64,000 nucleotides of DNA, from the NCBI GenBank assembly GCA_041660165.1, contig JBAZWW010000006.1, forward strand, positions 10,337 to 74,336. The letters are read 5' to 3'. Both the position numbers and the translations under genes were made by a program. This stretch comes from Patescibacteria group bacterium. Its GTDB lineage: Bacteria; Patescibacteriota; Patescibacteriia; UBA9934. Positions 5,954 to 46,708 of this stretch are shown here, piece by piece (positions within the stretch are counted from its first letter, which is position 1; every line of letters begins with the position of its first letter). The notes below the pieces were generated by a model that was given only the letters and a program-made list of their open reading frames with translations, did no database searches and was not told the DNA's origin.

Positions 5954-6547
5954 TTAGCCTTGTTTCTGTTCCGCAATAATCTCAAGCGCCTTCTTTTTCG
6001 CAATAGTCCATGTAGCGAGCGACCAGCCATTCGTGATTCTTCCCTCAGCAATCATTTGGTCGATTTCTGCGGGGGTGAACCAAAAGAGCTCAAAATCTTC
6101 CGTTTCGTCTTTAGCTATCGAACATGGAGAGAGATCATAGGCCACAAAAACAGAAGCAACCTGATCAGTGAGCCCGGAACTTGCTTCAAAAAACCCGGCC
6201 CGGTCAACATGCTTTGCTGAGAACTGCGTCTCCTCTGCAAACTCAGCTGAGGCAGTTTCCTCCTCGGTCTTCCCTGATTGCTTGCCACCAGCGGGAAATT
6301 CTAATGATTCCTTATCAATCACCGGGCGGAACTGGTTCACCATGGCAATTTTACCCTCAGCATTCACTCCCACAATCATTGATCCGCCGGCATCATGCGC
6401 GTAGTAGTACTTCACTTCTTTGCCGGAAGAAAGAAGGTGCCTGCTCAGGCGATATTCCCAATAAGGATTTCGAGCGAGTAATTCATCGCTCACTTTTTCC
6501 CATTTCTTGAGAGGCATATTACAACTTACCCCGAATCTCTTCAGCAA
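5954..6547 (-). CDS. NUDIX hydrolase (ADP-ribose / nucleotide-sugar pyrophosphatase-like)
   Basis: 197 aa; degenerate Nudix box GGKQSGKTEEETASAEFAEETQF (GX5EX7..EExG-like). Confidence 0.55.
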   Translation of the reverse strand: MLKRFGVSCNMPLKKWEKVSDELLARNPYWEYRLSRHLLSSGKEVKYYYAHDAGGSMIVGVNAEGKIAMVNQFRPVIDKESLEFPAGGKQSGKTEEETASAEFAEETQFSAKHVDRAGFFEASSGLTDQVASVFVAYDLSPCSIAKDETEDFELFWFTPAEIDQMIAEGRITNGWSLATWTIAKKKALEIIAEQKQG

Positions 6548-10877: not shown

Positions 10878-12854
10878 ATGTTTAGCCGTCTTCTTCAAGT
10901 GATTATAGCAATAGGCGCCGGAATCGCCCTTTTTAGCGTGCTCTCAACGGGAATGTACTACGTCATGCCGGTGACGAGTGCAGGACTCGCCATCTGTGCA
11001 GTCGTAGCCGTCGGGCTCATCATCGTCATCCCGAGGAGCTCAAACCCACCCCCTTTAACCCGTCAAACAGGTTTCAGGATGACAACAGCGCTTCTTCTCT
11101 TCATCTCGCTCGTCTCCCTCACCTTCTGGTGGCACGCAGTTCTTACACATCCTATCGTCGAGTCCATTCGGTCGCCGTGGCTCGCAATTGATCCCTCAAA
11201 TCTCATCACGCTCTTTGTCCCGTTTGTAATCGGCGTGGTGCTCTTCAACAAATCGCGCACGGCGAGTTTTTTGATCTTCGTGCTTACCATATTTTCGGCG
11301 CTCTCACTGGTGGCTGTTGCGTATCCGCTTGGCTACGGGTTTGATCCATTTTTACACAGGGCAACAATTCAACACATAGCGGACTATGGAACCATCACAC
11401 CAAAACCGCTCTACTACATTGGCGAGTACATGATCGAGTTATTTGCGCTGAAGATTCTGCATCTGCCATTATTTTTGGTGGATGTGTATTTGGTGCCATT
11501 GCTTGCGTCCATCCTGATTCCAACGGCGGTGTTCGTTGGGATGGGGTCGGGATCCGAGACGGGGTCGATACATGGATCGACCCCTACGGCGATGCTCGTT
11601 CTCCTCTTTCTTCCCCTCTCTACGTTCATCCAAACCACTCCGCAGGCGTTGGCGTTTGTGTTCACGGCGGTGGTAATTTTTCTGACGGCGCCTGAATTAT
11701 TTCGCGGACCAAAAGACGGGCCAACGCATTGGTCGGCCCCTACGTCGCTTGCGCTTCCGGGGATTTTCGCACTCGCGGCGCTTGTTGCCCACCCGCTCGC
11801 TGGTCTCTCAGCGGTGTTTTACGTGGCCATGATTGCGGTTGCGTCATTGAAATTTACGCGGGGTGGCGGGGTTAAAACCCCCGCCTTGGCGGTTGGTGTT
11901 GTCGCGTGTGTCTCGGCGGTCGCCCTACCGATGGCGTTCATGGTGCAATCCATCAAAGCGCATCTCCCGCTTGGGTTCGCGTTACCAACCCTCGGAAAAA
12001 TTTCCTCGCTTCCATTGACGGCTTTTTTGGGAACGCATTTCAATGCCTGGGGCGATACGGCGTATCTGGTGATTGGCAATTTATTTTTGGTGACGGTCGG
12101 CCTGGGAATTTTCGGGGCGTGGCGAATGCGCGGAGCAATGGGGACGAGGCGAGCCTCGTCCGTACGGCAATTCATTCCATTGATCGCCGCCGGCATTGCC
12201 TTCGCGAATTTCCTGATCCTTGGTCTCTTCTTTGATTTTCCGTTCTTGATCGCTTACGAACGAGCGGATTTTGCGGGCAGGATGCTGACGCTAACGGCGT
12301 TGTTCCTGTTGCCGTATGTGCCGGATGCGTTGCGTCGTAGGGGAGGGTCTGAGACCCTCCCCTACGCCACGCAACGCACGTTCACAACGATCATCATCGG
12401 CATCGTTTTTGTGTCGAGCGTCTATGGCGCATATCCGCGGTATGACGCCTACGCCAGCTCGGCAGGATTCAATGTGACAAAGGCAGATGTTGAAGCCGTG
12501 CAAGCCATTGAGAAATATGCAGCCGGTCGCGACTACGTTGTGCTCGCAAACCAAGCTACCTCATCTTCGGCAATTTCAGAACTCGGCTTCAAAAAATATT
12601 ATCACGGGGATATGTTCTTCTACCCTATCCCCACCGGCGGTCCCCTCTATCAGCTTTTTCTTACAATGAGCAGTACGCCAAATAAAACGACAATTGAAAA
12701 AGCCCGCGAAATCACGGGCGCTCATCTGGTCTTCTTTGTCATGAGCGATTACTGGTGGGACGCGAATCGAGTGATCGAACAAACAAAACCGCTCGCAGAT
12801 GCTGTGTGGACTTTTGAAAATGGAAACGTAACGGTGATGGTGTTTGAAAAATAA
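10878..12854 (+). CDS. Large polytopic membrane protein with C-terminal soluble domain (possible GT-C-type transferase)
   Basis: 658 aa; ~12 N-terminal TM helices plus a ~190-aa C-terminal domain; no diagnostic motifs recognised. Confidence 0.35.
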   Translation: MFSRLLQVIIAIGAGIALFSVLSTGMYYVMPVTSAGLAICAVVAVGLIIVIPRSSNPPPLTRQTGFRMTTALLLFISLVSLTFWWHAVLTHPIVESIRSPWLAIDPSNLITLFVPFVIGVVLFNKSRTASFLIFVLTIFSALSLVAVAYPLGYGFDPFLHRATIQHIADYGTITPKPLYYIGEYMIELFALKILHLPLFLVDVYLVPLLASILIPTAVFVGMGSGSETGSIHGSTPTAMLVLLFLPLSTFIQTTPQALAFVFTAVVIFLTAPELFRGPKDGPTHWSAPTSLALPGIFALAALVAHPLAGLSAVFYVAMIAVASLKFTRGGGVKTPALAVGVVACVSAVALPMAFMVQSIKAHLPLGFALPTLGKISSLPLTAFLGTHFNAWGDTAYLVIGNLFLVTVGLGIFGAWRMRGAMGTRRASSVRQFIPLIAAGIAFANFLILGLFFDFPFLIAYERADFAGRMLTLTALFLLPYVPDALRRRGGSETLPYATQRTFTTIIIGIVFVSSVYGAYPRYDAYASSAGFNVTKADVEAVQAIEKYAAGRDYVVLANQATSSSAISELGFKKYYHGDMFFYPIPTGGPLYQLFLTMSSTPNKTTIEKAREITGAHLVFFVMSDYWWDANRVIEQTKPLADAVWTFENGNVTVMVFEK

Positions 12855-20473: not shown

Positions 20474-23122
20474 TCAGAACGACGCCCGGCTAAACCAAAG
20501 GTGTGTCAGACTGCCAGAACCTGTCCAGCGTCCGGTGCAGATGATCAGATCAAGCGCCGTCTGCGCCGACCCCGTCGTAAACCCACCCACCACGCGCACC
20601 TCGCTGTTGGCAGACGGAGCCTCTTGCTCATTCCACAGCGTGCTGGAGGGAGTCCAGCTGGCTCCGTTGTACACCTGTACGAAGTTTCCTACAGCGGAAC
20701 TCGCATTACGGACCACGAAGCTGAATCCGTACTTGGTGCTCGGTAGAACCACCAGGCTCTTGAGCGAGACGCACTCCGTGGCGCCGAAACCTGGAGAAGC
20801 CGGCACAAGCACCCCGAGCGCGTTTACGGAGAGGCCGGTCAAACCGCCCGCCACCGTACCCGCATAGGGAGCAACCGTGAGCGCGGTGGATGTGTACCCG
20901 GAAGCCGAGTAATGCACGACCCAGTTACCCCTGGTTCCACCCGGGAAGTAGGACGACTCTGCCCCGAACTGGCTCTCAATGAGGTTTGGTCCAGTGTAGG
21001 TCACTGGACCAGCATCGGAGGTTGCACCCCCGTACGCCAAACCATCATCCATCGCCTTGCCGTTGCAATCGTCATCCCACACACTCGCTGGCCGCTCAGC
21101 CACGCCGGGGTTCACCGCCGCCAGACTGTCGTTACAGTCGCCGGCCACCGCCACGTATCCCGCTGGTTGTGAACAGGCGGTGACGTTCTTGGTTGCGTCC
21201 CCATACGTATCGGTATCAAGGTCTGCGTAGTACGCAGTAGCACCGACGCCATCGTCAATCAGCACATTGCAGTTGTCATCCTTCCCGTTGCACGTCTCTA
21301 CGGCCCCGGGGTGAATGAGATTCGTGGTGTCATCGCAGTCAGAACTATTGGTCGAGTATCCCGTTGGCACGGAGCACGCGTCCTTTGTCCCGAGCGGGGT
21401 ACCGTACGTGTCATTGTCGTTGTCCACGTAGTACGTGATCTTCACGCCTTCGTCAGTTCCACCTGCGCAGTTGTCGTCTTTCCCGTTACAAACTTCCGTC
21501 TGCCCGGGATACACGAACTTGTCGCTGTCAAGGCAATCCGTAGGATCAAGCACATACCCCGCGGGAGGCGAACACTGGACGGCTGACTTGGTGATGTCAC
21601 CGTAGCCGTCCTTGTCACTGTCCGCATAGTACGTATTACTGCCAATGGCCCCGTTGTCCACGGCGCCATCACAGTTATCATCCTTCCCGTTGCAGACTTC
21701 CGTGCCCGTGGGACTCACGCTCACATTGGCGTCATCGCAGTCCGTGGAAGTGGACACATACCCGGCTGGCGCCAGGCACGCTTTGGTCGAGGTAGAACCC
21801 CCGTACCCATCTTTGTCCGCATCCTGGTACCACGTTTTCGCATCTACCGCACCAATGTCAGTCGTGCCATCGCAGTTGTCGTCCTTGCCGTTGCAAGTTT
21901 CAACCGCGCCCGGAAACACGAGTTTGTCCGTATCATTGCAGTCGCTCTCATTGGCCACGTACCCAGCCGGCGGAGTGCAGGCTTCCGTAGAAGTCCCGCC
22001 CCCGAACCCGTCCGTATCTGCGTCCTTGTAGAACGTCAGCAACACGCCTTCGTCAATGACGCTGTTACAATCGTCATCCCGATCGTTGCAGACCTCGCTG
22101 GCACCAGGGTTCACCGTGGCCCGCGCGTCGTCGCAATCCCCGCTCTGAAGCACGTAGCCCGCAGGCGCGGAACATGCCTCCTTGGCCGGGCCAGATCCGT
22201 AACCGTCCTGATCCGCGTCTTGGTAATAGGCGGTCAAGACGCCATTATCGATTCCACCGACGCAGTCATTGTCCGTCCCGTCGCACACCTCTGTGGCGCC
22301 GGGATTCACTGCAAAGTTGGAATCATCGCATTCCTGGCAAGCAAAGTAGCCATCGCCGTCATTGTCCGTAGCCCCGTACGAGCCATCGCAATTCAGATCT
22401 ACGAAGTCCGTACAGGTCTCAACCGCACCGGGATGAACAGTGTAATCACCGTCATCGCAGTCCTCGTTGTTCGTTGCATAACCGTCCGGCAACTTACAGG
22501 CCATGACCGTCCTGTCGGCCCGTCCGTAGCCGTCTTTGTCCGAGTCCTTGTAGAACTCGTCCTGGCCGGCCACGCCCGTGTCCGCGTCATCCGTCAGCTC
22601 ATCACAGTCGTCGTCAAACCCGTTACAGGTTTCAACGGCGTCCGGATGAATGGCTGAATTGTCATCATTGCAGTCAACGTCGGCGCTGTAACCGTCCTCG
22701 TCTGCATCGATGATTTCGATCTCGCCATCTTTCCCGTCACAGTCCTCGTCAATCCCGTTTCCGGGAACCTCGACCGCGTCAGGATTGATATCCGGGTCCG
22801 CGTCATCGCAATCGCTCGCGTTCTGCACGAGTCCGGCCATGACGAGCGCGTCGCAACCCTCAAAATACGATGCGCTGTCGCCGAAACCATCGCCGTCTAC
22901 GTCCGAATACCAGAGCAAGCGCGGAACCGCTTCGTCTGGCTGTCCGTCACAATCCTCATCCACCCCGTTGCACGGAATCTCTTCCGCGCCCGGGTTGATG
23001 TCCGCGTTGTCGTCATTGCAATCCTCATAGCTCCAGAAGCCGTCGCCGTCCGCGTCCACCAGCGGGTGGCGCCCAACACAGCCGGCAAGCAACAGAAGAA
23101 CTGAACACGTAAAAGAACGCAT
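20474..23122 (-). CDS. Secreted/lipoprotein-like protein with ~10 tandem MopE-type putative metal-binding repeats
   Basis: 882 aa; signal peptide with LLLLAGC; ~70-aa repeat YxDxDxDGYG...AC..P.GYV....DC.D......PG..E.CNG.DDNCDG..D.G, iterated; non-repetitive ~280-aa C-terminal domain. Confidence 0.75.
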   Translation of the reverse strand: MRSFTCSVLLLLAGCVGRHPLVDADGDGFWSYEDCNDDNADINPGAEEIPCNGVDEDCDGQPDEAVPRLLWYSDVDGDGFGDSASYFEGCDALVMAGLVQNASDCDDADPDINPDAVEVPGNGIDEDCDGKDGEIEIIDADEDGYSADVDCNDDNSAIHPDAVETCNGFDDDCDELTDDADTGVAGQDEFYKDSDKDGYGRADRTVMACKLPDGYATNNEDCDDGDYTVHPGAVETCTDFVDLNCDGSYGATDNDGDGYFACQECDDSNFAVNPGATEVCDGTDNDCVGGIDNGVLTAYYQDADQDGYGSGPAKEACSAPAGYVLQSGDCDDARATVNPGASEVCNDRDDDCNSVIDEGVLLTFYKDADTDGFGGGTSTEACTPPAGYVANESDCNDTDKLVFPGAVETCNGKDDNCDGTTDIGAVDAKTWYQDADKDGYGGSTSTKACLAPAGYVSTSTDCDDANVSVSPTGTEVCNGKDDNCDGAVDNGAIGSNTYYADSDKDGYGDITKSAVQCSPPAGYVLDPTDCLDSDKFVYPGQTEVCNGKDDNCAGGTDEGVKITYYVDNDNDTYGTPLGTKDACSVPTGYSTNSSDCDDTTNLIHPGAVETCNGKDDNCNVLIDDGVGATAYYADLDTDTYGDATKNVTACSQPAGYVAVAGDCNDSLAAVNPGVAERPASVWDDDCNGKAMDDGLAYGGATSDAGPVTYTGPNLIESQFGAESSYFPGGTRGNWVVHYSASGYTSTALTVAPYAGTVAGGLTGLSVNALGVLVPASPGFGATECVSLKSLVVLPSTKYGFSFVVRNASSAVGNFVQVYNGASWTPSSTLWNEQEAPSANSEVRVVGGFTTGSAQTALDLIICTGRWTGSGSLTHLWFSRASF

Positions 23123-23404
23123 TGAAGCACCCCTAAAAAGGCCCCCTAAAATTAGCCCAAAAACGGGGCTTCGTCAATAAATACCGGTCCAATCTCCGAG
23201 CTGAGGATGAAGAGGAGAGAGAGGAACGAATGAGAAAATTCTTTAAAGAATTGATTCCATCCTCTCTCTCCTCTCCATCCTCAGTCGACGGCGCTTAGTT
23301 ACAAAACCAAACTCCCTCACACCTTTCGGCATGAGGGAGCTGGTAGACCCGTCGAACGGGTCTAGGGCTGAGAACCTTTCGGCTGTCAGGCAGGCAAGCG
23401 AGTC

Positions 23405-26400
23405 TTAGAAGACCAGCGTACCGCCGTTGACCGTCAAGTTATCAACCAAGTAGGAACCCCAGAAATCATCAACGCTACCAGTAACGCCCGTTACGCCGTC
23501 ATCCTTCCAGACCAATGAGCTTGGCATGCGGAGGATAGCGTCGTTAACGCTTACGTTGGCTGCGATGGCGTGCAACGTGTTCAGGTAACCGCGGACAACC
23601 GAGATGGTGTCAGTGGCGACCAAGGTCACGAGCATAGCTTCGTCACCAGAGGAGAACAAGCTATTGTCATCTACGTCGAGAACCAGGATATCACCCACTG
23701 TGTACGAGGCTCCAAGACCACCGTCTACGTCAAAGCTTGTGGCTGTAGCTGCAAGTGATGCAGTAGCCATACCGGCGTCGTTGACTACGAGGTACGTGGA
23801 GTTAATCGGATCAGTTGGGAGATCTACGCGGATGGAGTCATCCGAGCTTGAGCTTGCGCCAGTTGTATCAATGTACAAGGCGAAGGTCTGAGAAACGCCC
23901 TTTGGCACGATTTCAACCGATGGGAGAGTGATACGAGCAAAGCCCACTGAAGCTTCAGTCGTGTCACAAACTGCACCGGACGCCTTCATGAGGGTCCAAT
24001 CAGCATCAGCCGTATCCAACGTGGTGGAAGTTCCATCCGTGGTCAGGTTGTAGAGATCGAAGTCAGACGTGCGCATTTCGCCAAGGTCCTGATCCGTGTC
24101 ACAAGCGTTCCAAGAGGCAGTTGCGATTGGCGCGTTGTCCGTGGTGCTGAGCTTGAAGATAAGCTCCTGGAGCACAACGTCTTCGTTTGCGGAAGCAGCT
24201 ACGTTGAAGCGCAAAACCTCTGAACGGCCCACCACTGCGCTACCCGATGGGGATGAAGCGCTGAGCGTGATGGTTGGCTTTGTTTCCTTCACCACGAAGG
24301 TGGCTACACCGTCCGTGGAGAATGGATCATTACCAACTGCAGCCTGGTCATCATCATCAAGCGTAGCACCTGAGCCAGCGCCGACGATCTTATAGTTGTC
24401 GTCATTCGTGGTGTCAACGAAGAGACCCATGCGGATCCTTTCATTTGACGTGGCAGAGCCACCGGAATCACGGTCAGTTCCCGGAACGTTCACGTATACC
24501 TTTACATCCTTAGGAGTACCGGTTGGGACGTACATGAGCAGGCTTGAGAACTTAGCCTCATTGCCTGACATGCCCGTAGTAGCCGTACCCGTTGTGCCGT
24601 CAGCCTTAGGATAGGTGATGGTCACAAGTGAGATGTTGTTAGCGTAGGTGCTCTCGTTGGTGTTCGTCGTTACGCCGACGCCGTTTGTGTCATCTTCGGC
24701 CTGCTCTTCAGAGAAGGTCAAAGTCTGCACGTTAAAGGCTTCGTTCGTAGCGGTGAAGCGGTACGTAGCTACCTGGTTGTTGTTGCTTCCGTCAAGCACA
24801 AAGTCAGCGCTTGGCGTATCTGCGCCTACAGCCACTGCCAATGTACCAGAGTCAGCAAGCGTTACGAAGCGAGTAGCCGCAGTAGCCGTTGCACCCGCGG
24901 TGAGATCACCGTTCAGGTCGCTACCCGTTACCGTAAACGTATCGCCGGAAGAATCTTCCGCAACCACATCAGTGGAAGCATCCTCAATGTCAAACGCGAA
25001 GTACGCGCTTCCGGAAGTAGAAGTGTTGGCAAAGTTACACTTCGCGGTCAACTGCTTCACGGAGCCGTGTGCAAGCGTCCAACGGATGGTGTCAAACCTG
25101 ACGGTCTGTCCGTTCGTGCTTGGAGCCTCAGGGCCGGCCAAGAGCGTGGTGCCGTCATAGAGTGAGCAAGATTCAACGTAGTCGTTGATATCTGATGCCG
25201 TTTCTCCACCAGAGGTCATGGAGGCGTTTGCCGCGTCATCACCGTATGCGTTCAAGGTGAAGTCCGTGACCGTCACGTCAGAAGCATCGCCAGCCGTAGC
25301 CGTGAAGCCAATGACAGAAACGTTCTGCGTACCGTCAACCGTGGTCACGCTGGAAGGCGTGCTGGCCAAGGCAAAGGCCAAGGTAGCGGCACGGGCAACC
25401 TGGTTGTAACCAGTCATGTCTGATCCCGGAACGATATCTGAAGTGGCCAAGGCATCACCGTTGGAATCTTCCGTGGTCAAGCCACTGATGTCGAAGATGG
25501 CGGCAACTGCCGTAGCGGAAGCGATACCGTTGTCAATATCCGCAGTGACAGCCAAATTGATGGTTTCACCTGCGTTTGCTGACCAATCATCAGTGAAGTC
25601 AATGGTCTGGCGGGCATCATTTGTGCCATCAGCGCCACAAACCAACGTTACGCAGTCAAGCTCCATCGGACCCATGACCACAGCTCCGGTGTCGGAGTTA
25701 ATGATCTTGATGTCCTTAAGGTTTCCTTCTGCGCCCGTGTTGATAAGACCTGCGGTGTCATCTGAAGAATCATCACCGGTATCGGTAGCATCACCATCAG
25801 CGTCGTCATCGGCGCCAACAATAATGTCCATATCCTTAATAGTGACGAACTGGGAAGCTGTCATGGAAAACTTCAGGAGAACCTGATCCTGGGAATCCGT
25901 CTGGATGTCTCCAGCAGACGGGCCATTGAAAGCAAACGTCAGTTTGCCTCCCTTAACCGTGCTCCAGGAGCACTTGCCAGAAGCGGACGTACAGGTTGTA
26001 CCGTCATAGGTACCGGAGGTACCCGTGTCAACGGAGAGTCCAAAGCCGAAGTCACCGCCAATGGCGATCACGTCAACATCATTGTCAATGAAGACATGGA
26101 CTTCATCATTTGCCTGACCGCCAACGTCTGCAGTAACGGAGAAGATGTTATTTCCACCTTCTGCGATTGCAAACGGATGAGCGGAGAGATCAAACAATAC
26201 TGCATCACCAGACGTGTTCACGCCCTGTGCCACGAGGACGGTGCCGTCCCAAAGGCGGTAATCAGCGTGATCAGCTGCATTATCAATCTTGAGCGTGACG
26301 CTCGTGACGGATGCAGACTCAGAACCGTTAGCAGCTATCTTGAATTCACCAATCTTGGCGTCCTGCTGGCCAATCGTCGGGCTGGAAATGGTTCCAGTCT

Positions 26401-27610
26401 TTGTGATGAGCAACGTGCCTGCATCAGAACCGGTGAAGGTAAAGATGTTGCCCGTGATTGGGAAGGAACCGGAAACCGCGCCTCCTGACACAACGTCAGC
26501 AGCGGCGGTGATCTTGAAACCAATGGTATCAGCGGCTACCTGGGAGGTGGAAGTGGTGATGCGCACCGTGTAGGTGTGCGTTGCACCGGCCGCGATAGCC
26601 TTGTTCAAGTTGTTGAAGGAAACCTGGCGAGTGGAAGAGTTCACCGTGCGGGACTCCGTCAAACGCGTGCTGCCCTCATAGAGGTACGTGTTGCTGATGT
26701 TGTTGGTGGAACCAGCTCCAATCATGGAGAGGGTTACGCCATTGAACGTAGCAGCTTCCGTACCTGCCTTCACCGTGAAGCGGAAAGCCTCAACAGCGTT
26801 GGCGCCACCCGGGAGGGAAGCACCGGCGGGCATGGAGGAAGCAGCGGAGACCGTGAGGCCACCCGTTGTTACACCAGAACCCGATTCTGTCTGAGCGCCA
26901 TCAACCACGGAGAGTTCCTTGATTGTGAGGTCAGTACCTGCGGTAAGAGCGGCGTCATCAACTCCGGATCCATCCATGACGAACATGGTGTTAAATCCGT
27001 TAGCTGAGAAACCAGCCGTGGAAACCAAGCGCTTTGCACCATCCCACGCGAGATAGGTGTTGCCGGCCTTGGAGTACAACATACCGTTATACGCCGTGGA
27101 GGTCATGAGTGACGTACCAACGGTGTAATCCGTGAAGAACACATCTGGGACGTCAGTGATACGCTGATTCCAGTCGGAACCTGCGTAACCAACTGCTACG
27201 GCCTCAGATTCAATCCAATGCATCATACCGTTGCGAGCAACGGCGTATACCTTTGGATCTGAAGTCACCTTTACCCAATACGTACCCGGGCGCATTTCTA
27301 CGTTACCACCAAGGGTGATATCGGAGATCGTGCTGTCAGAAACCGTCATGACATGGCTGAAATCCGGAGCTCCGGAGGCAGTCATGTACCAAGACTTATA
27401 GGTGCTCACGTTTGGAAACGTGTAGCGCATACCATCGTAACCGTAGTAGTAGACCGTTGAGAGCGAAGCGCTCCTAATCAGGTCTCCAGCGGAGGCTGCT
27501 TGTGTCGTACCAGGGTTCACGAGAACGCCAGCACCGATAGAGAAAGCGATCGTGGCCGCAGCTACTGCTGCGGAAAGCGCGCGCTTACCCGTGTCTAGAA
27601 CATGTTGCAT
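23405..27610 (-). CDS. Giant secreted cell-surface protein (1401 aa; T/S/G/A/D-rich, Ig-like/beta-rich repeats)
   Basis: Signal peptide MQHVLDTGKRALSAAVAAATIAFSIGAGVLVNPGTTQAASA; long low-complexity beta-strand-rich sequence. Confidence 0.7.
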   Translation of the reverse strand: MQHVLDTGKRALSAAVAAATIAFSIGAGVLVNPGTTQAASAGDLIRSASLSTVYYYGYDGMRYTFPNVSTYKSWYMTASGAPDFSHVMTVSDSTISDITLGGNVEMRPGTYWVKVTSDPKVYAVARNGMMHWIESEAVAVGYAGSDWNQRITDVPDVFFTDYTVGTSLMTSTAYNGMLYSKAGNTYLAWDGAKRLVSTAGFSANGFNTMFVMDGSGVDDAALTAGTDLTIKELSVVDGAQTESGSGVTTGGLTVSAASSMPAGASLPGGANAVEAFRFTVKAGTEAATFNGVTLSMIGAGSTNNISNTYLYEGSTRLTESRTVNSSTRQVSFNNLNKAIAAGATHTYTVRITTSTSQVAADTIGFKITAAADVVSGGAVSGSFPITGNIFTFTGSDAGTLLITKTGTISSPTIGQQDAKIGEFKIAANGSESASVTSVTLKIDNAADHADYRLWDGTVLVAQGVNTSGDAVLFDLSAHPFAIAEGGNNIFSVTADVGGQANDEVHVFIDNDVDVIAIGGDFGFGLSVDTGTSGTYDGTTCTSASGKCSWSTVKGGKLTFAFNGPSAGDIQTDSQDQVLLKFSMTASQFVTIKDMDIIVGADDDADGDATDTGDDSSDDTAGLINTGAEGNLKDIKIINSDTGAVVMGPMELDCVTLVCGADGTNDARQTIDFTDDWSANAGETINLAVTADIDNGIASATAVAAIFDISGLTTEDSNGDALATSDIVPGSDMTGYNQVARAATLAFALASTPSSVTTVDGTQNVSVIGFTATAGDASDVTVTDFTLNAYGDDAANASMTSGGETASDINDYVESCSLYDGTTLLAGPEAPSTNGQTVRFDTIRWTLAHGSVKQLTAKCNFANTSTSGSAYFAFDIEDASTDVVAEDSSGDTFTVTGSDLNGDLTAGATATAATRFVTLADSGTLAVAVGADTPSADFVLDGSNNNQVATYRFTATNEAFNVQTLTFSEEQAEDDTNGVGVTTNTNESTYANNISLVTITYPKADGTTGTATTGMSGNEAKFSSLLMYVPTGTPKDVKVYVNVPGTDRDSGGSATSNERIRMGLFVDTTNDDNYKIVGAGSGATLDDDDQAAVGNDPFSTDGVATFVVKETKPTITLSASSPSGSAVVGRSEVLRFNVAASANEDVVLQELIFKLSTTDNAPIATASWNACDTDQDLGEMRTSDFDLYNLTTDGTSTTLDTADADWTLMKASGAVCDTTEASVGFARITLPSVEIVPKGVSQTFALYIDTTGASSSSDDSIRVDLPTDPINSTYLVVNDAGMATASLAATATSFDVDGGLGASYTVGDILVLDVDDNSLFSSGDEAMLVTLVATDTISVVRGYLNTLHAIAANVSVNDAILRMPSSLVWKDDGVTGVTGSVDDFWGSYLVDNLTVNGGTLVF

Positions 27611-34741: not shown

Positions 34742-35572
34742 TTAGGCGATACTCTTTTTTGTTGGCTGTTTCAAAAAGTTTTGCTTTGACACAATCGGCC
34801 GGCCAAGTTTTTTCTCAAGTTGTTTTCTTGCACCGCCGGCAATTGTGCCACCGGCTCTGGCGTCGGCTTTGAGTTTCTTTACGCCTTTCGAATTCTCGTT
34901 GCGATGGATCTCCGTAGTCGAACGCTCACCGAGCATGTTAAAGATGAGCTCGAAATCATCCATATGATCGCGCAGATTCTCGCGTTTCAAGCCCTTGAGC
35001 TTTTTGTACTCAGTTGGCGTAACCCCAAAAGTGGCTTTAGAGATTTCTGCCGTCAAAATCTCATAATCGCCACTTTCTTTGGCCCCGCGATTTTTCCATT
35101 CGTCCGTAAGCTCTTCGCGGATGACGATTCCGCGCATGCGCTTCTCAATCCAGTCTTCGTTGTATCCCTTCAGCTTGTAGAGTATGCGGGTACGCTTTGT
35201 TGCGAGTTCGGGATTCTCGATCTCCTGCACACGCTCAAATCCAACCTTGGCAAGCCAACGCTTGAAGGGTTCTGCTTTAGGAGAAGGAACAGATTGAATT
35301 ATGCGAAACATGCCCTCAATATCAGCACAATCCGTCTCTCGCATCTTCCCGTCCGGAGCTTCCAATTTCAACTGGTGACATTTTGTCACCACTTCACTTC
35401 CCTCTTCTCGTAGCCGTTGAGATAACTTATTCCAATATTTTCTCGCCACATAATCATCCTCCTGGTCAATGAGCGCCCGAATAACATCCACCACCGAAAA
35501 CCACCACTCACCATTGACAAGTGCCTTGCGTATCTCCTTACCCTTGAACAATGCAATGTGGTTGTTCGTCAT
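34742..35572 (-). CDS. DinD-like DNA-damage-inducible protein (N-terminal Bro-N domain)
   Basis: 276 aa; Bro-N signature LFKGKEIRKALVNGEWWFSVVDVIRAL; C-terminal half parallels E. coli DinD (GLKRENLRDHMDDFELIFNMLGERSTTEI...). Confidence 0.65.
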   Translation of the reverse strand: MTNNHIALFKGKEIRKALVNGEWWFSVVDVIRALIDQEDDYVARKYWNKLSQRLREEGSEVVTKCHQLKLEAPDGKMRETDCADIEGMFRIIQSVPSPKAEPFKRWLAKVGFERVQEIENPELATKRTRILYKLKGYNEDWIEKRMRGIVIREELTDEWKNRGAKESGDYEILTAEISKATFGVTPTEYKKLKGLKRENLRDHMDDFELIFNMLGERSTTEIHRNENSKGVKKLKADARAGGTIAGGARKQLEKKLGRPIVSKQNFLKQPTKKSIA

Positions 35573-35581
35573 ATGTTCGTA

Positions 35582-35806
35582 TCATACCACATCTGAAACA
35601 CTTCCCTGCCAGCCCCAATCTTTAATAACTTTCGCCAGCTCCTCCTTCAAATCCGCTTTGCCAAGTTTGCACTCCTGAAACGGCCCGCTAAAAAATGGCT
35701 TCATCTTGTCCCATATAATGCCGTAGGCTTCCTGGATACGAGCCGAGAATTTCGGCGAGAGAAGCGTCATGCCGTCGGCGTCAAAGAGAATAGCCTTGTA
35801 GGTCAT
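35582..35806 (-). pseudogene. HAD-superfamily hydrolase N-terminal fragment (74 aa; motif I only)
   Basis: AILFDADGMTLL is HAD motif I (DxDG[TV]); the ORF stops before cap/motifs II-IV; wedged between the Fic and DinD-like genes with 3-nt and 9-nt gaps. Confidence 0.4.
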
Positions 35807-35809
35807 AAA

Positions 35810-36427
35810 CTATGATTTTGGTTTTCGACTCAGCCCGGCGTAAACAATCCTCTCCATCGGTAAATACTGCTTGGACATGCCTTTAATACACGCATGGATA
35901 TATTCATCTTGAGTTTTCTTGGCCCAGTCAATCGGATAGTATCCACTGTTTACTACCAAGAGATCAAGGAACAGACGAATCGTTCGGCCATTTCCTTCCC
36001 GGAAAGGATGAATCGCATTCAGCTCGCTATGTAAGAACGCAACCTTCTTTGCCATCTGCCTCTTAGTATCACTGTCCTTCGGGGTGTTGAGCTTAAAACT
36101 AGCCTCAAACTCTTTCAGTGAGGTTGGCAAATGAGCCAAAGCGGCAAACTGCATTCCATTCTTAGCAATGTCCACCGTTCTCACCTTTCCTGCCCAAGTA
36201 TAGAGCGGGGAAAGAAAATACTGATGAATCTCAAAAAGTGTCTTGGGGCCAAATCTCATTCTACCCTGAGCAAGCAAATCAAAAAAATACTCGTATGCAT
36301 CAGAAAAAAGATGTGTTTCGGCATCATCAAGCGCTGCTTGAGTATGAATTCCGAGTTTATTTTTCAAAACTTTACCATCCATCCCAGATGCTTCACCGCC
36401 TACACTATAGCGAGAATGCTCTGCCAT
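35810..36427 (-). CDS. Fic/Doc-family protein (putative AMP/phospho-transferase)
   Basis: 205 aa; canonical Fic motif HPFREGNGRTIRLFLDLL. Confidence 0.8.
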   Translation of the reverse strand: MAEHSRYSVGGEASGMDGKVLKNKLGIHTQAALDDAETHLFSDAYEYFFDLLAQGRMRFGPKTLFEIHQYFLSPLYTWAGKVRTVDIAKNGMQFAALAHLPTSLKEFEASFKLNTPKDSDTKRQMAKKVAFLHSELNAIHPFREGNGRTIRLFLDLLVVNSGYYPIDWAKKTQDEYIHACIKGMSKQYLPMERIVYAGLSRKPKS

Positions 36428-36616: not shown

Positions 36617-37162
36617 TTAGCGTTTCAAATATTCCTCCCGGCTCATCACCTTTCTCAGGTCAGTAAATTTGTCGAGACAGACGATTCCCTGCAGATGATC
36701 ATACTCATGCTGAATACATTTTGCGAGTAAGCCGTCCGCGGAAACGGTGAACGGTTTTCCGTCAGCATCGTATGCTTGAATGGTAATTTTTGACGGTCGT
36801 TTCACGGGACCGAATAATTGGCCATGCGCTAAACTTCCGCAACCTTCGTACAGGAGAGTTTTGGTTTTCGATAAAGCAATGATCCGCGGATTTATGTAGA
36901 CGCAAAGTACTGAAGCTTCTTTGACTGCTTTTCGCGTAGCGGTCTTTCGTATTTCCGTCACAAAAATCTGCAACTCACTCCCAATCTGCGGGCCGGCCAT
37001 GCCGATCAATCCGTGATGGCGCATGTGGGCAATGAGGGACGCAATGACTGATCGAGTTTCTGGCGAGGAAATATCTGTCACTCGACGAGCCTTCTGTCGG
37101 ATAATCGAGTTCCCCACTTGAATGATGGGTTTCATTTTGAGGCTCATAGAATGTTGCATCAT
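36617..37162 (-). CDS. def: Peptide deformylase
   Basis: 181 aa; GLIGMAGPQIG (motif 1), EGCGSL (motif 2), QHEYDHLQG (motif 3). Confidence 0.85.
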   Translation of the reverse strand: MMQHSMSLKMKPIIQVGNSIIRQKARRVTDISSPETRSVIASLIAHMRHHGLIGMAGPQIGSELQIFVTEIRKTATRKAVKEASVLCVYINPRIIALSKTKTLLYEGCGSLAHGQLFGPVKRPSKITIQAYDADGKPFTVSADGLLAKCIQHEYDHLQGIVCLDKFTDLRKVMSREEYLKR

Positions 37163-42693: not shown

Positions 42694-42733
42694 ATAACCG
42701 AAAACCACTCGCCATAAACGAGTGGTTTTCTCT

Positions 42734-42901
42734 TTATCCCCACCTCGATAACGAATCGCTTAAAACCATGTTGCAATAGAAGGGTCAGAAATAGCAAACT
42801 CCCCATTTAGTTGGCGGAGTTTTTGTTTGTTTTATTCGATAAAAGGAGGCCTATGTAGAAAACTATCCGTGAGCTATACTTTATTCAGTAATACCTTTCG
42901 T
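42734..42901. repeat. ~165-bp direct repeat copy 1 (promoter/leader region of a small-protein gene)
   Basis: ~90% identical to 43723-43889 (TTATCCCCACCTCG...ACCATGTTGCAATAGAAGGGTCAGAAATA...TTTTGTTTGTTTTATTCG.TAAAAGGAGGCCTATGTA...). Confidence 0.8.
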
Positions 42902-43108
42902 ATGGATAAACAGGAATTTACACAGATACTCACCCAGGCTCTCTCCGACCAATCTCGCGATCTGCGCGAGTACACTGATCAGCGCGTCTCTGCTTCGGAA
43001 AGACGAATCCTTGATGGCGTGGGCGAAATGTTCGATGGCCTGAGTCCGCAGTTCAACAATCACGAGCGCCGAATTCTAAAACTTGAGAAACTCGTCCACG
43101 CCACATAA
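42902..43108 (+). CDS. Small conserved hypothetical protein, paralog 1 (68 aa)
   Basis: C-terminal 38 aa nearly identical to the paralog at 43890-44153 (DQSRDLREYTD...GVGEMFDGLSPQFNNHERRILKLEKLVHA). Confidence 0.6.
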   Translation: MDKQEFTQILTQALSDQSRDLREYTDQRVSASERRILDGVGEMFDGLSPQFNNHERRILKLEKLVHAT

Positions 43109-43675: not shown

Positions 43676-43722
43676 ATGGGGAGATGGTAGCACAAAAATA
43701 GCCAGCGGACGGAGAAGTAAAC

Positions 43723-43889
43723 TTATCCCCACCTCGCCCAGCAAACACCTTAAACCATGTTGCAATAGAAGGGTCAGAAATATCAAACTCCCCATTTACT
43801 TGGCGGGGTTTTTGTTTGTTTTATTCGGTAAAAGGAGGCCTATGTAAGAAATCGTCAGTGCGTTATACTTTATTCAATAAGCATCTCAT
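43723..43889. repeat. ~165-bp direct repeat copy 2
   Basis: See copy 1. Confidence 0.8.
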
Positions 43890-44153
43890 ATGAATGAACA
43901 GATAATTCAGAAATTACTAACCCAGGCGCTTACGACCAATAACAAGGTCCTTCTTGGCCAAGTCAAGGAATATACCAATCAGGCCTTGGCCGATCAATCC
44001 CGAGATCTCCGAGAATATACCGATATGGAACTTAAAAGAACAAGGCAAGAAATCCTCGAAGGCGTAGGCGAAATGTTTGATGGCCTGAGCCCGCAGTTCA
44101 ATAACCACGAACGGAGAATTCTCAAACTAGAAAAACTTGTTCATGCATCGTAA
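43890..44153 (+). CDS. Small conserved hypothetical protein, paralog 2 (87 aa)
   Basis: Same family as 42902-43108 with a 20-aa insertion; followed by the terminator CTCCGCTCCACATGGGCGGAG + TTTTAG. Confidence 0.6.
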   Translation: MNEQIIQKLLTQALTTNNKVLLGQVKEYTNQALADQSRDLREYTDMELKRTRQEILEGVGEMFDGLSPQFNNHERRILKLEKLVHAS

Positions 44154-44210
44154 CAACCTAGCAAAACTCCGCTCCACATGGGCGGAGTTTTAGTTATCCC
44201 CATGACATTC

Positions 44211-44265
44211 TTGCGTTCGGTTTCCGTTCGGTTATGATAAGGGTAGACAAGAACAGATCGCGAAC
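44211..44265 (+). promoter_or_regulatory. lexA promoter (TTGCGT-16-TATGAT) overlapped by two direct-repeat boxes, GTTC-N7-GTTC (44215-44229) and GAAC-N7-GAAC (44251-44265): candidate LexA operators
   Basis: Motifs read from the sequence. GTTC-N7-GTTC is the alphaproteobacterial-type LexA box (established knowledge); its relevance here is inferred. Confidence 0.4.
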
Positions 44266-44292
44266 AAGTGATCTGAGATAATTTACACATAT

Positions 44293-44913
44293 ATGGCTCC
44301 TCTGCCGCCACTCACTAAGAGACAGCGAGACGTGCTCGACTGTATAGAAGCCTTTGTGAGAAAGAACAGCTACACGCCGTCGTACCGAGAGATCGCCGAG
44401 AAGCTGGGTCTCTCTTCACCGGCCACTGTTCATCAGCACATTAAGGCGCTGTGTGAGAAGGGCATCATCAATACGGGCGAGCACGGGATCGCGCGCTCGA
44501 TCGAAGTCGTCGAGACAGAACTCGTCTCCCCGCTCGCCATCATGCTCCCGCTTTCAGGATTGATTACCGCGGGCGAACCGATCGAAGCGATCGAAGACAG
44601 GGAGACGATCGCCGTGCCAACAGACTTCGTGCTTGACCCAATGAATTCGTACGTGCTCAAAGTGAAAGGACGATCAATGATTGAGGACGGGATTTTTGAC
44701 GGAGACTTCGTCGTCATCGAAAGAAATCCTTCGCCGAAAAATGGAGACATTGTCGTGGCCTTACTCGACAATGCATACGCAACGCTCAAACGTTTCTACC
44801 GAGAGAAAGACCATATCCGTTTACAACCCGCCAACAGCTCAATGAAACCTTTCATTATCAAAGGGGACATCAATATCCAGGGAATAGTAAGAGCAGTGTT
44901 AAGAAAGTTCTAA
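44293..44913 (+). CDS. lexA: LexA repressor (S24 peptidase)
   Basis: 206 aa; N-terminal winged HTH (YREIAEKLGLSSPATVHQHIKAL); C-terminal S24 domain with Ser (VKGRSM) and Lys (TLKRF). Confidence 0.9.
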   Translation: MAPLPPLTKRQRDVLDCIEAFVRKNSYTPSYREIAEKLGLSSPATVHQHIKALCEKGIINTGEHGIARSIEVVETELVSPLAIMLPLSGLITAGEPIEAIEDRETIAVPTDFVLDPMNSYVLKVKGRSMIEDGIFDGDFVVIERNPSPKNGDIVVALLDNAYATLKRFYREKDHIRLQPANSSMKPFIIKGDINIQGIVRAVLRKF

Positions 44914-45130: not shown

Positions 45131-45154
45131 CTATCCCTCCTCACGTCGGGATGG
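45131..45154. repeat. Family-1 hairpin element (CTATCCC-TCCTCACGTC-GGGATGG), 12 nt upstream of the orfX start codon
   Basis: Reverse complement identical to 14243-14267. Confidence 0.6.
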
Positions 45155-45411
45155 GAATAAATCCTATGCACGAATACGTGAATGATCCGATTGATGTGTC
45201 CGTGGATTTTGCGGGACGGAAGGTACGGCCCAATAAGGTTCGCTGGGGGCAACGGGATTACTTGATCAATAAGATCAATTTAGTTCACGGCGCCAGAGAG
45301 GGAGCCAAGCGAATCTTTTACTTCTCGGTCTCGGACGCCGCGAACTTTATGAAATTACGGCTTGATACGGAAACGCTTGAGTGGAGGCTGGTCGAGGTTT
45401 ATTCGTCCTGA
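45151..45411 (+). CDS. Hypothetical 86-aa protein, translationally coupled to dinB (orfX)
   Basis: Stop TGA overlaps/abuts the dinB start (TGATATG); no domain recognised. Confidence 0.45.
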   Translation: MGINPMHEYVNDPIDVSVDFAGRKVRPNKVRWGQRDYLINKINLVHGAREGAKRIFYFSVSDAANFMKLRLDTETLEWRLVEVYSS

Positions 45412-45412
45412 T

Positions 45413-46708
45413 ATGCCCATCATCCTGCACATCGACTTCAACTCATTCTTTGCGTCAGTCGAACAGCAGGCGAATCCCTTTCTTAGAGGAAAAGCAATCG
45501 CTGTAGCGGGTAAGGGCCGAGAGACCATCGACCCCCTCCCGGCCTCCCCCTTGGAAAGGTGGAGGGGCCATACTGAACGAGTCGACATCGGCAAACTTCA
45601 GTTTGCTAGATCTGTAGTCACTACTGCCTCACGCGAGGCGAAGAAGCGCGGGGTAAAAACCGCCATGGCCACGTGGGAAGCCAGGAAACTGGTACCCGAT
45701 TTACTCATCATCCCCGGAGATCCGCACAAATACAGCGAAATCACCGCCCGGATGATGGCCATTCTTCGCAGATACGGTGACGCGGTAGAACAGTTCAGTG
45801 CGGATGAAGCCTTTGCGGACATCACCTGCGCCTCAGGCGGAGATTATTTTGGCGCAGCTCTTTTAGCCGAACGCATTCGCGCGGATGTGCGCGCAGAATG
45901 CGGAGAGTGGTGCACCGCCTCACTCGGAGTCGCGCCAAACCGCCTTGTAGCAAAACTGGCAAGCGAATCTCAGAAGCCGGACGGACTGACGATTGTCCCG
46001 CCGGATGACGTGCTTTCTTTTATTGACTCTCGACCGCTCGCTGATTTCTGCGGTATCGGCCCGCGCATCGAACAGAGGCTCGCGTCTCTTGGCGCAACCT
46101 CAACAAAAACTCTGCGAGAACTTCCCCGCGAAAGACTGCTCGTAGCCTTCAAAAAGAGTTACGGTGACTGGCTGTACTTCGCGGCTCGCGGTATGAGCGA
46201 CGACAGAGTGGTTGACGAAACCGAGGATCCCAAATCTGTCGGTCACTCGTACACCTTTCCGCAAAGTCTAGAAACCGAAAATGACGTTCGCCGTCACCTC
46301 CTTGGTCTGGCCGATCGCGTCTCTTGGCGGATGCGAAAACAGGGACTCGCCGGAACGCACATCAGCGTCTATGTCCGCTATGACGACATGGACAGTGTGG
46401 GGCTCGGCAAAAAATATAAAGAGCCAATGTTTGATGGCTTAACGATTACAAAAACGGCGCTCGCCCTTCTTCTCCCTCGGCTATCCCTCCCACGAGGGAT
46501 CCGTCTCCTTGGCGTCTCAGTATCCGGCCTCGTGAAACTTCCTGGAGCGAATCCGCTTTTGCGAGCTGAGGCAAGAAACCAAAGCGCGCTCCGGTCGCTC
46601 GACAAAATCTCCGAGAGATATGGCAACGGGACATGGCAACGCTTGAGTACGCTTGGCGTCATCTTTAAGGAGCGGACAAGCGGATGGCATTATGACCATG
46701 AAGTTTAA
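45413..46708 (+). CDS. dinB: DNA polymerase IV (Y-family)
   Basis: MPIILHIDFNSFFASVEQ (DxD motif), SADEAFADIT, thumb/little-finger region; ~25-aa insertion after AVAGKG relative to canonical DinB. Confidence 0.85.
   Translation: MPIILHIDFNSFFASVEQQANPFLRGKAIAVAGKGRETIDPLPASPLERWRGHTERVDIGKLQFARSVVTTASREAKKRGVKTAMATWEARKLVPDLLIIPGDPHKYSEITARMMAILRRYGDAVEQFSADEAFADITCASGGDYFGAALLAERIRADVRAECGEWCTASLGVAPNRLVAKLASESQKPDGLTIVPPDDVLSFIDSRPLADFCGIGPRIEQRLASLGATSTKTLRELPRERLLVAFKKSYGDWLYFAARGMSDDRVVDETEDPKSVGHSYTFPQSLETENDVRRHLLGLADRVSWRMRKQGLAGTHISVYVRYDDMDSVGLGKKYKEPMFDGLTITKTALALLLPRLSLPRGIRLLGVSVSGLVKLPGANPLLRAEARNQSALRSLDKISERYGNGTWQRLSTLGVIFKERTSGWHYDHEV

Follow-up and report, generated by a model that had tools for sequence, protein, structure and literature searches.

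The 64,000-nucleotide stretch of DNA analysed here, referred to throughout as the window (contig JBAZWW010000006.1, positions 10,337 to 74,336), stems from a genome of Candidatus Uhrbacteria (Patescibacteria) and carries a lexA gene whose promoter is overlapped by two GTTC-N7-GTTC direct repeats, one filling the spacer between the -35 and -10 hexamers and the other following the -10 in inverted orientation. We consider it highly probable that LexA represses its own promoter by way of these two boxes, which would be its operators. The sequence, position and conservation of the boxes can be read directly, as can their specificity for lexA promoters and the fact that LexA is intact, and the architecture is that of an ordinary self-repressed lexA promoter of a kind known in other bacteria. 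The elements in question are as follows.

44211-44216, + strand: -35 hexamer TTGCGT, assigned from the sequence
44214-44230, + strand: box 1, 17-mer CGTTCGGTTTCCGTTCG, a GTTCG direct repeat with an 11-bp period that fills the spacer; 25.5 bits with the matrix described below; predicted LexA operator 1
44215-44229, + strand: core of box 1, GTTC-N7-GTTC, GTTCggtttccGTTC, overlapping the last two bases of the -35
44233-44238, + strand: -10 hexamer TATGAT, after a 16-nt spacer; its end lies 54 nt before the lexA ATG at 44293
44250-44266, - strand: box 2, 17-mer TGTTCGCGATCTGTTCT, 18.9 bits; second predicted LexA operator, over the predicted early transcribed region
44251-44265, inverted relative to box 1: core of box 2, GAACagatcgcGAAC, starting 12 nt after the -10
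44293-44913, + strand: lexA, 206 aa (PF01726 and PF00717; TIGR00498), with cleavage site Ala93-Gly94, Ser128 and Lys166

The original prediction, made from this DNA alone, had described a TTGCGT-16-TATGAT promoter about 55 nt before lexA, with one GTTC-N7-GTTC repeat in its spacer and an inverted copy downstream. All of these elements are in place: the -10 ends 54 nt from the ATG, the -35 and the -10 are conserved in 81 promoters, and the two cores lie at 44215-44229 and 44251-44265. The second box had been put about 15 nt downstream; it is present, but the real distance is 12 nt after the -10. Lying over a real lexA promoter, the boxes are also the best candidates for LexA operators, as had been proposed.

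Conservation of the direct-repeat boxes

Taken by itself, the bare GTTC-N7-GTTC pattern is not significant in the window, where it occurs 5 times versus 2.3 expected and where 6 of 100 shuffles reach 5, and the case therefore rests on conservation across genomes and on a 17-mer matrix. The comparison set consisted of 80 lexA loci, one genome per species, nearly all from metagenome-assembled genomes of Uhrbacteria or Patescibacteria and totalling 479 kb; counts out of 81 refer to these loci plus the window. The matrix was built from the orthologous lexA sites with the window left out.

The lexA upstream regions of the 80 loci cannot be aligned with each other apart from a single block, cTTGCGTTCGgTTTtTGTTCGgtcTATAAT-ACGAACAnAnnnCGAACA. 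Box 1 reaches at least 20.4 bits in every locus (80/80, or 81/81 with the window) and keeps a constant register between the -35 and the -10. The -35 itself reads TTGCGT in 56 and TTGTGT in 16 of the 81 promoters, the spacer measures 16-17 nt, and TATAAT-like hexamers occupy the position of the window's -10. An operator of this type had been thought unexpected for the lineage; with box 1 at all 80 loci, the architecture is instead the rule in Uhrbacteria. Box 2, for which the Uhrbacteria consensus is ATACGAACAnAnnnCGAACA, scores at least 12 bits in 57 of the 81 promoters, and 50 of these copies start 1 nt after the -10. The 17-mer of the window starts 11 nt after the -10, that is, 10 bp beyond the usual place, a displacement of one helical turn by which the same face of the DNA is kept. 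Both boxes have the 17-mer yGTTCGnnTTnTGTTCG in common, with most of the information in the two GTTCG units and looser conservation of the bases in between; the half-site (T/C)GTTCG is thus arranged head-to-tail with a period of 11 bp.

Furthermore, we counted all pairs of 4-mers separated by 0-12 nt in the 150 nt upstream of lexA, using 1,335 windows as background. GTTC-N7-GTTC and its frame-shifted versions rank first and are present in 72 of the 80 upstream regions, compared with 1.3% of the background windows. A different conserved palindrome upstream of the lexA orthologues, an alternative that the original prediction had allowed for, was sought in the same count, and no rival palindrome appears among the top 30 dyads of the 80 regions.

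The four half-sites of most promoters show two-fold symmetry about the -10 (TGTTCG-N10-CGAACA). With this arrangement, LexA might bind in the conventional way, as a dimer, to an inverted repeat made of the inner GTTCG of box 1 and the inner CGAAC of box 2, the outer half-sites being auxiliary; long-spaced LexA palindromes do exist, for example GGTT-N10-AACC in Geobacter (PMC8565304). We regard this as unlikely. The gap between the two 17-mers is usually 9-10 nt but ranges from 8 to 19 nt (values of 8, 14 and, in the window, 19 nt also occur), while the N7 spacing within the boxes, and hence the 11-bp repeat, is invariant. In addition, box 1 stands alone in 24 of the 81 promoters, and the promoters of a Bro-N domain gene and of two tRNA-Asp genes (see below) carry one direct repeat each and no inverted partner. 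The invariant N7, the variable gap between the boxes and the single boxes elsewhere argue that the direct repeat is the functional unit.

A generic sigma-70 scan of the window did not call the lexA promoter, because TTGCGT fits TTGACA at only 3 of 6 positions (TTG); we therefore relied on the conserved -35 and -10 of the 81 promoters. Unusual promoter requirements are conceivable in view of this missed call, and box 1 falls on the -35 and the spacer, so the repeats could also be conserved promoter sequence without a dedicated protein, for instance a spacer or discriminator composition that sets promoter strength. Such an explanation appears very improbable, given that the 17-mer recurs in inverted orientation past the -10, where a role as spacer is impossible, that conservation is focused on GTTCG and relaxed in between, and that the motif is missing from the other promoters of the window.

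The matrix shows high specificity for lexA promoters. Three matches of at least 8 bits were obtained in the 64-kb window, two of them being the boxes of lexA and the third, of 24.1 bits, lying at 35563-35579, and the remaining annotated genes of the window (encoding glycolysis enzymes, glycosyltransferases, a release factor, FtsW and others) are without a matrix site. In the 479 kb of Uhrbacteria loci the matrix found 140 matches of at least 16 bits, versus 0-2 in shuffled sequence, and 136 of them are located at lexA promoters; 225 kb of unrelated metagenomic loci yielded no match.

The LexA protein and the lexA-orfX-dinB cluster

Judged by its domains and active-site residues, the product of the window's lexA gene is a bona fide, complete LexA. 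It combines an N-terminal winged-helix domain (PF01726 at 3.9e-20, residues 6-62) with a C-terminal S24 peptidase domain (PF00717 at 1.5e-30) and scores 186 bits with TIGR00498, versus a cut-off of 111. Alignment with E. coli LexA (7b5g, 1jhh, 3jso) pairs ITAGEP with VAAGEP, GRSM with GMSM and ATLKR with VTVKR, and the Ala-Gly cleavage site as well as the Ser and Lys positions are invariant among 25 Uhrbacteria LexA sequences.

A comparison of the recognition helix with that of alphaproteobacterial LexA had been suggested, and its outcome speaks against a protein of that type: the DNA-binding domain and the half-site CGAACA both resemble those of Firmicutes. Helix 3 reads SPATVHQH, versus SPNAAEEH in E. 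coli, and resembles SSSTVHGH of B. subtilis. Over its N-terminal domain, the window's LexA shares 51% identity with B. subtilis LexA versus 34% with S. meliloti LexA, and it lacks the long linker of the alphaproteobacterial (S. meliloti) protein; the comparisons with B. subtilis and S. meliloti are approximate. The recognition helix therefore looks Firmicutes-like, not alphaproteobacterial. The closest LexA proteins, at 75-90% identity, are labelled Candidatus Uhrbacteria or Patescibacteria, and all of the closest relatives belong to these groups, none to an alphaproteobacterial lineage.

Two further genes follow lexA on the same strand.

45151-45411, + strand: orfX, 86 aa, conserved, between lexA and dinB
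45413-46708, + strand: dinB, Y-family DNA polymerase IV (Pfam IMS, IMS_C and IMS_HHH; NCBIfam DNA polymerase IV)

The dinB ATG lies 1 nt past the orfX stop codon, and neither a box nor a terminator-like site was found between lexA and dinB in the window. The order lexA-orfX-dinB is kept in 64-66 of the 80 loci and in four further loci, with dinB inside the lexA operon in 64 of the 80. A second protein search, made for stand-alone dinB genes, returned only lexA-orfX-dinB clusters, the sole split case being locus L191. Thus, dinB is probably the last gene of the lexA operon. The orfX gene is present in 66 of the 80 loci and encodes 81-86 aa; its product has no match in Pfam (even at E = 10), NCBIfam or PHROGs. 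It may be an accessory protein of polymerase IV, and some genomes have a MazG-like gene inserted at this place.

We infer that LexA is the protein bound to the boxes because the sites are located on its own promoter, because nearly all strong sites are at lexA and because the half-site TACGAACAT is of the Firmicutes type. Head-to-tail binding, co-transcription of dinB and a RecA-dependent step complete the proposed mechanism. LexA dimers would bind to the head-to-tail repeats flanking the -10, and occupied boxes 1 and 2 would exclude RNA polymerase or block promoter escape. A single transcript would most likely span lexA, orfX and dinB. Upon DNA damage, RecA filaments would stimulate the self-cleavage of LexA at Ala93-Gly94 (catalytic residues Ser128 and Lys166), the boxes would be vacated, and synthesis of the repressor would go along with that of the translesion polymerase.

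Sites away from the lexA promoters

The few sites found off lexA promoters, at the Bro-N gene of the window and at two tRNA-Asp genes in the comparison loci, are single boxes without an inverted partner. The first of them involves two features.

35563-35579, + strand: third box, 24.1 bits, with the minus-strand sequence TGgTATGAT-ACGAACATATGACGAACA; located at the Bro-N promoter and start codon
34742-35572, - strand: Bro-N domain gene, phage antirepressor-like (PF02498; phrog_15286 at 5e-91; weak Ant matches)

The layout of this site is that of a -10 followed by box 2, as lexA promoters typically have it. The box contains the Bro-N start codon, about 8 nt past the -10, which suggests a leaderless mRNA. 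Compared with the synteny of loci L009, L161 and L164, the Bro-N gene, a Fic gene (34742-36427 for the two, - strand) and a downstream def gene (36617-37162) form an insertion between metK and the gene of a small membrane protein. The surroundings of Bro-N show no evident prophage, the neighbours being the Fic gene and housekeeping genes. The Bro-N protein family is widespread, with more than 589 metagenome relatives at 64-82% identity. An identification of the protein as DinD was rejected, as there was no NCBIfam match.

LexA-controlled phage antirepressor genes are known, for example Tum of coliphage 186 and the antirepressors of the Gifsy prophages. The Bro-N gene resembles them as a Bro-N/Ant-like, phage-type gene with a LexA-type box on its promoter; it differs in that no prophage is evident around it and that the site is not conserved in the homologues of the gene.

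The tRNA-Asp genes lie at 6415-6531 (- strand) of locus L018 and at 6334-6454 (- strand) of locus L021, and each has a perfect 17-mer box, TGTTCGTTTTCTGTTCG (28.7 bits), which fills the promoter spacer and is placed like box 1 of lexA. The loci contain three further tRNA genes, for Ser, Ala and Thr, and these lack the box. For the tRNA-Asp gene of L018, ARAGORN called the anticodon ATC instead of GTC.

Several of these results weigh against autoregulation by LexA through the boxes. A box on two tRNA-Asp promoters is not obviously accounted for by an SOS operator, and the Bro-N box recurs in none of the 80 closest homologues of that gene, all from metagenomes; with these homologues being AT-rich and from other lineages, the survey neither confirms nor refutes the Bro-N site. 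A recognisable box 2 is missing from 24 of the 81 promoters, including those of the closest relatives, L001 and L012. A search for the motif at further SOS genes had been suggested: dinB lies inside the lexA operon, and in L191, where it is split from lexA-orfX by a divergent uppS, no box precedes it. Neither recA nor uvrA was found in the window or the fetched loci, and support for a regulon beyond the lexA operon is thin. Because of this weak regulon support and the unexplained tRNA site, we rate autoregulation as highly probable and no higher.

Direct repeats with an 11-bp period are, moreover, also the usual geometry of response regulators of the OmpR/PhoB type. Another direct-repeat regulator, for example a winged-helix response regulator, might thus bind to the boxes, and LexA would then not be autoregulated via them; the box on the two tRNA-Asp promoters and its absence from the lone dinB of L191 would be in line with such a protein. 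However, the concentration of strong sites at lexA promoters (136 of 140 in 479 kb) argues against it, as do a half-site equal to one half of the Firmicutes LexA box and a recognition helix of the matching type. The sites also cover the spacer and the start region, as those of a repressor do, rather than lying upstream like those of an activator, and no alternative LexA-like palindrome is conserved in the lexA promoters. We therefore hold a regulator other than LexA to be quite improbable and retain LexA as the predicted binder.

Pattern scans of viral contigs gave 22 heterogeneous matches and no clear target in a Uhrbacteria phage. One phage family (IMG/VR contigs L168, L169, L171, L172, L176, L177, L179 and L180; guanine-plus-cytosine (GC) content about 0.39) has iteron-like arrays in which an 11-bp repeat, GTGTTCGnnTT, occurs 4-5 times in tandem ahead of a TAAAAT, with the same half-site and period as the Uhrbacteria box. 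A lexA-promoter-like element, CTTGTGTTCGCTTTTTGTTCGCTATAGAAT, was seen at about 12,521-12,545 (- strand) of another IMG/VR contig (L174, GC 0.60), 132 nt upstream of the gene for a 991-aa protein that by eye looks helicase- or restriction-enzyme-like.

Promoter surroundings and relation to other LexA systems

Three more features flank or overlap the promoter.

44171-44188, + strand: terminator-like hairpin from the terminator scan, AAAACTCCGC...GCGGAGTTTT, closing the upstream small open reading frame (ORF) 43890-44153
44194-44202, + strand: DnaA-box-like 9-mer TTATCCCCA, matching the consensus TTATCCACA at 8/9 positions, 8 nt upstream of the -35
44254-44275, + strand: CAGATC-N10-GATCTG inverted repeat (arms 44254-59 and 44270-75), a hairpin in the 5' leader

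The terminator-like hairpin ends the preceding small ORF, which implies that lexA has a dedicated promoter.

The 9-mer of the window fits the DnaA-box pattern TTATNCACA at 8 of 9 positions. At a fixed position 8-9 nt upstream of the -35, such a 9-mer occurs in 71 of 80 promoters, 48 times as TTATCCACA and 23 times as TTATCCCCA, and the strict form TTATCCACA is found 48 times at lexA promoters versus 3 times elsewhere in the 479 kb. It is kept when the upstream neighbour changes (in the window and in L166 and L167) and marks the exact upstream limit of conservation. A second DnaA box is nearby in just 2 of 79 promoters. Joint control by DnaA and LexA has a precedent in E. coli uvrB (PMC6015884), and co-regulation of lexA by DnaA is possible on the basis of this conserved motif.

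The original prediction had also pointed to the CAGATC-N10-GATCTG palindrome overlapping the second box. It is present at 44254-44275 but is not conserved, being absent even from the closest relatives L001 and L012; for this reason, and because it folds as a leader hairpin (RNA fold of -12 kcal/mol, z = -4.1), we rejected it as a protein-binding site. It looks like a leader hairpin specific to the window, and we take it to be a by-product of box 2 having shifted by 10 bp.

Leaders of other kinds were seen as well. In L029, L059, L073 and L074, the promoter and the boxes lie far upstream, about 100-500 nt from lexA, and short tandem repeats, for example TTTCCAT, ACTTTCCAC and CAATCACTC, fill the long leaders. 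Between metK and lexA, a diversity-generating retroelement (RVT_1 and bAvd) is inserted at 4621-5592 of L166 and 547-894 of L167; it was found in some genomes whose LexA is identical to that of L164. Upstream of lexA in the window, two copies of a segment of about 140 nt (42731-42870 and 43720-43860), each starting with CTTATCCCCACCTCG and containing a hairpin, precede one paralogous small ORF each (42827-43108 and 43890-44153), and these ORFs share the C-terminal sequence GVGEMFDGLSPQFNNHERRILKLEKLVHA. Elsewhere in the window, at 20474-27610 (- strand), there are two very large ORFs, one of 882 aa with 11 MopE-type metal-binding repeats and one of 1,401 aa without a Pfam match.

With regard to known LexA systems, GTTC-N7-GTTC is the established LexA box of Alphaproteobacteria, present on SOS promoters including that of lexA (PMC8565304), as the original prediction had correctly stated. 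The geometry is identical, GTTC head-to-tail with 7 intervening bases. However, the Uhrbacteria unit is longer (yGTTCGnnTTnTGTTCG), the LexA is not of the alphaproteobacterial type and the lineage is Patescibacteria. Since protein type, unit length and lineage all differ, the resemblance to Alphaproteobacteria is most likely convergent. GTTC-N7-GTTC is reported for Acidobacterium capsulatum as well, the Acidobacterium paper being among the references of PMC7739468, and a LexA of alphaproteobacterial descent acquired laterally has been proposed in that case. PMC7739468, citing work on Verrucomicrobia, Patescibacteria and Acidobacterium, describes LexA as having independently evolved direct-repeat recognition several times. 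The Patescibacteria work cited there, by Sanchez-Osuna, Barbe and Erill (Environ Microbiol 2017;19:3465; doi 10.1111/1462-2920.13826), is also cited in PMC8565304 as documenting an SOS response; the network of that study concerns the same superphylum and the same regulator as the window. The system described here is thus of a known kind, in a lineage that already has an SOS study.

In half-site and helix, the likeness is to the LexA (DinR) of Firmicutes and Actinobacteria. There, the lexA-promoter consensus in Firmicutes is TACGAACATATGTTCGTA with the core Cheo box GAAC-N4-GTTC, and the Cheo box CGAAC-N4-GTTCG contains the same half-site TACGAACAT (CGAACA) as the boxes of the window (PMC2248561); in this half-site, the Uhrbacteria box 2 consensus ATACGAACAnAnnnCGAACA agrees with TACGAACATATGTTCGTA. 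The recognition helix is similar, and self-repression with sites over the core promoter is a shared feature. In contrast to the Cheo box, which is an inverted repeat with 4 bp between the half-sites, those of Uhrbacteria are arranged head-to-tail with an 11-bp period. Exact copies of a Cheo-type palindrome are missing from the window, which has 30 matches versus 38 expected when up to 2 mismatches are allowed, and the top dyads of the lexA promoters do not include this palindrome. The LexA of the window thus looks like a Firmicutes-type protein that would read its usual half-site twice in one orientation.

From these comparisons a wider scenario can be drawn, which we put forward as tentative and on the whole doubtful: in Uhrbacteria, a LexA with a Firmicutes-type helix may read the Cheo half-site head-to-tail, with an origin independent of that in Alphaproteobacteria, its regulon may have shrunk to little beyond lexA-orfX-dinB and a few acquired targets, Bro-N and tRNA-Asp, and DnaA may exert co-control through TTATCCACA. 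If true, the co-control by DnaA would tie the SOS repressor directly to the state of replication.

In itself, the finding is an ordinary one, and the DnaA-box 9-mer and the tRNA-Asp sites are the parts with the potential for something new. It provides a well-supported operator model, a 17-bp direct repeat placed twice and in opposite orientation around the -10, for an uncultured, genome-reduced lineage that is closed to genetics, and the matrix can be used for mapping the SOS regulon in complete Uhrbacteria genomes. Furthermore, it suggests a route by which LexA specificity may evolve, in which the half-site and the helix were kept as in Firmicutes and the second half-site came to be oriented and spaced differently, and it supports the published view that LexA has switched repeatedly between palindromic and direct-repeat targets.

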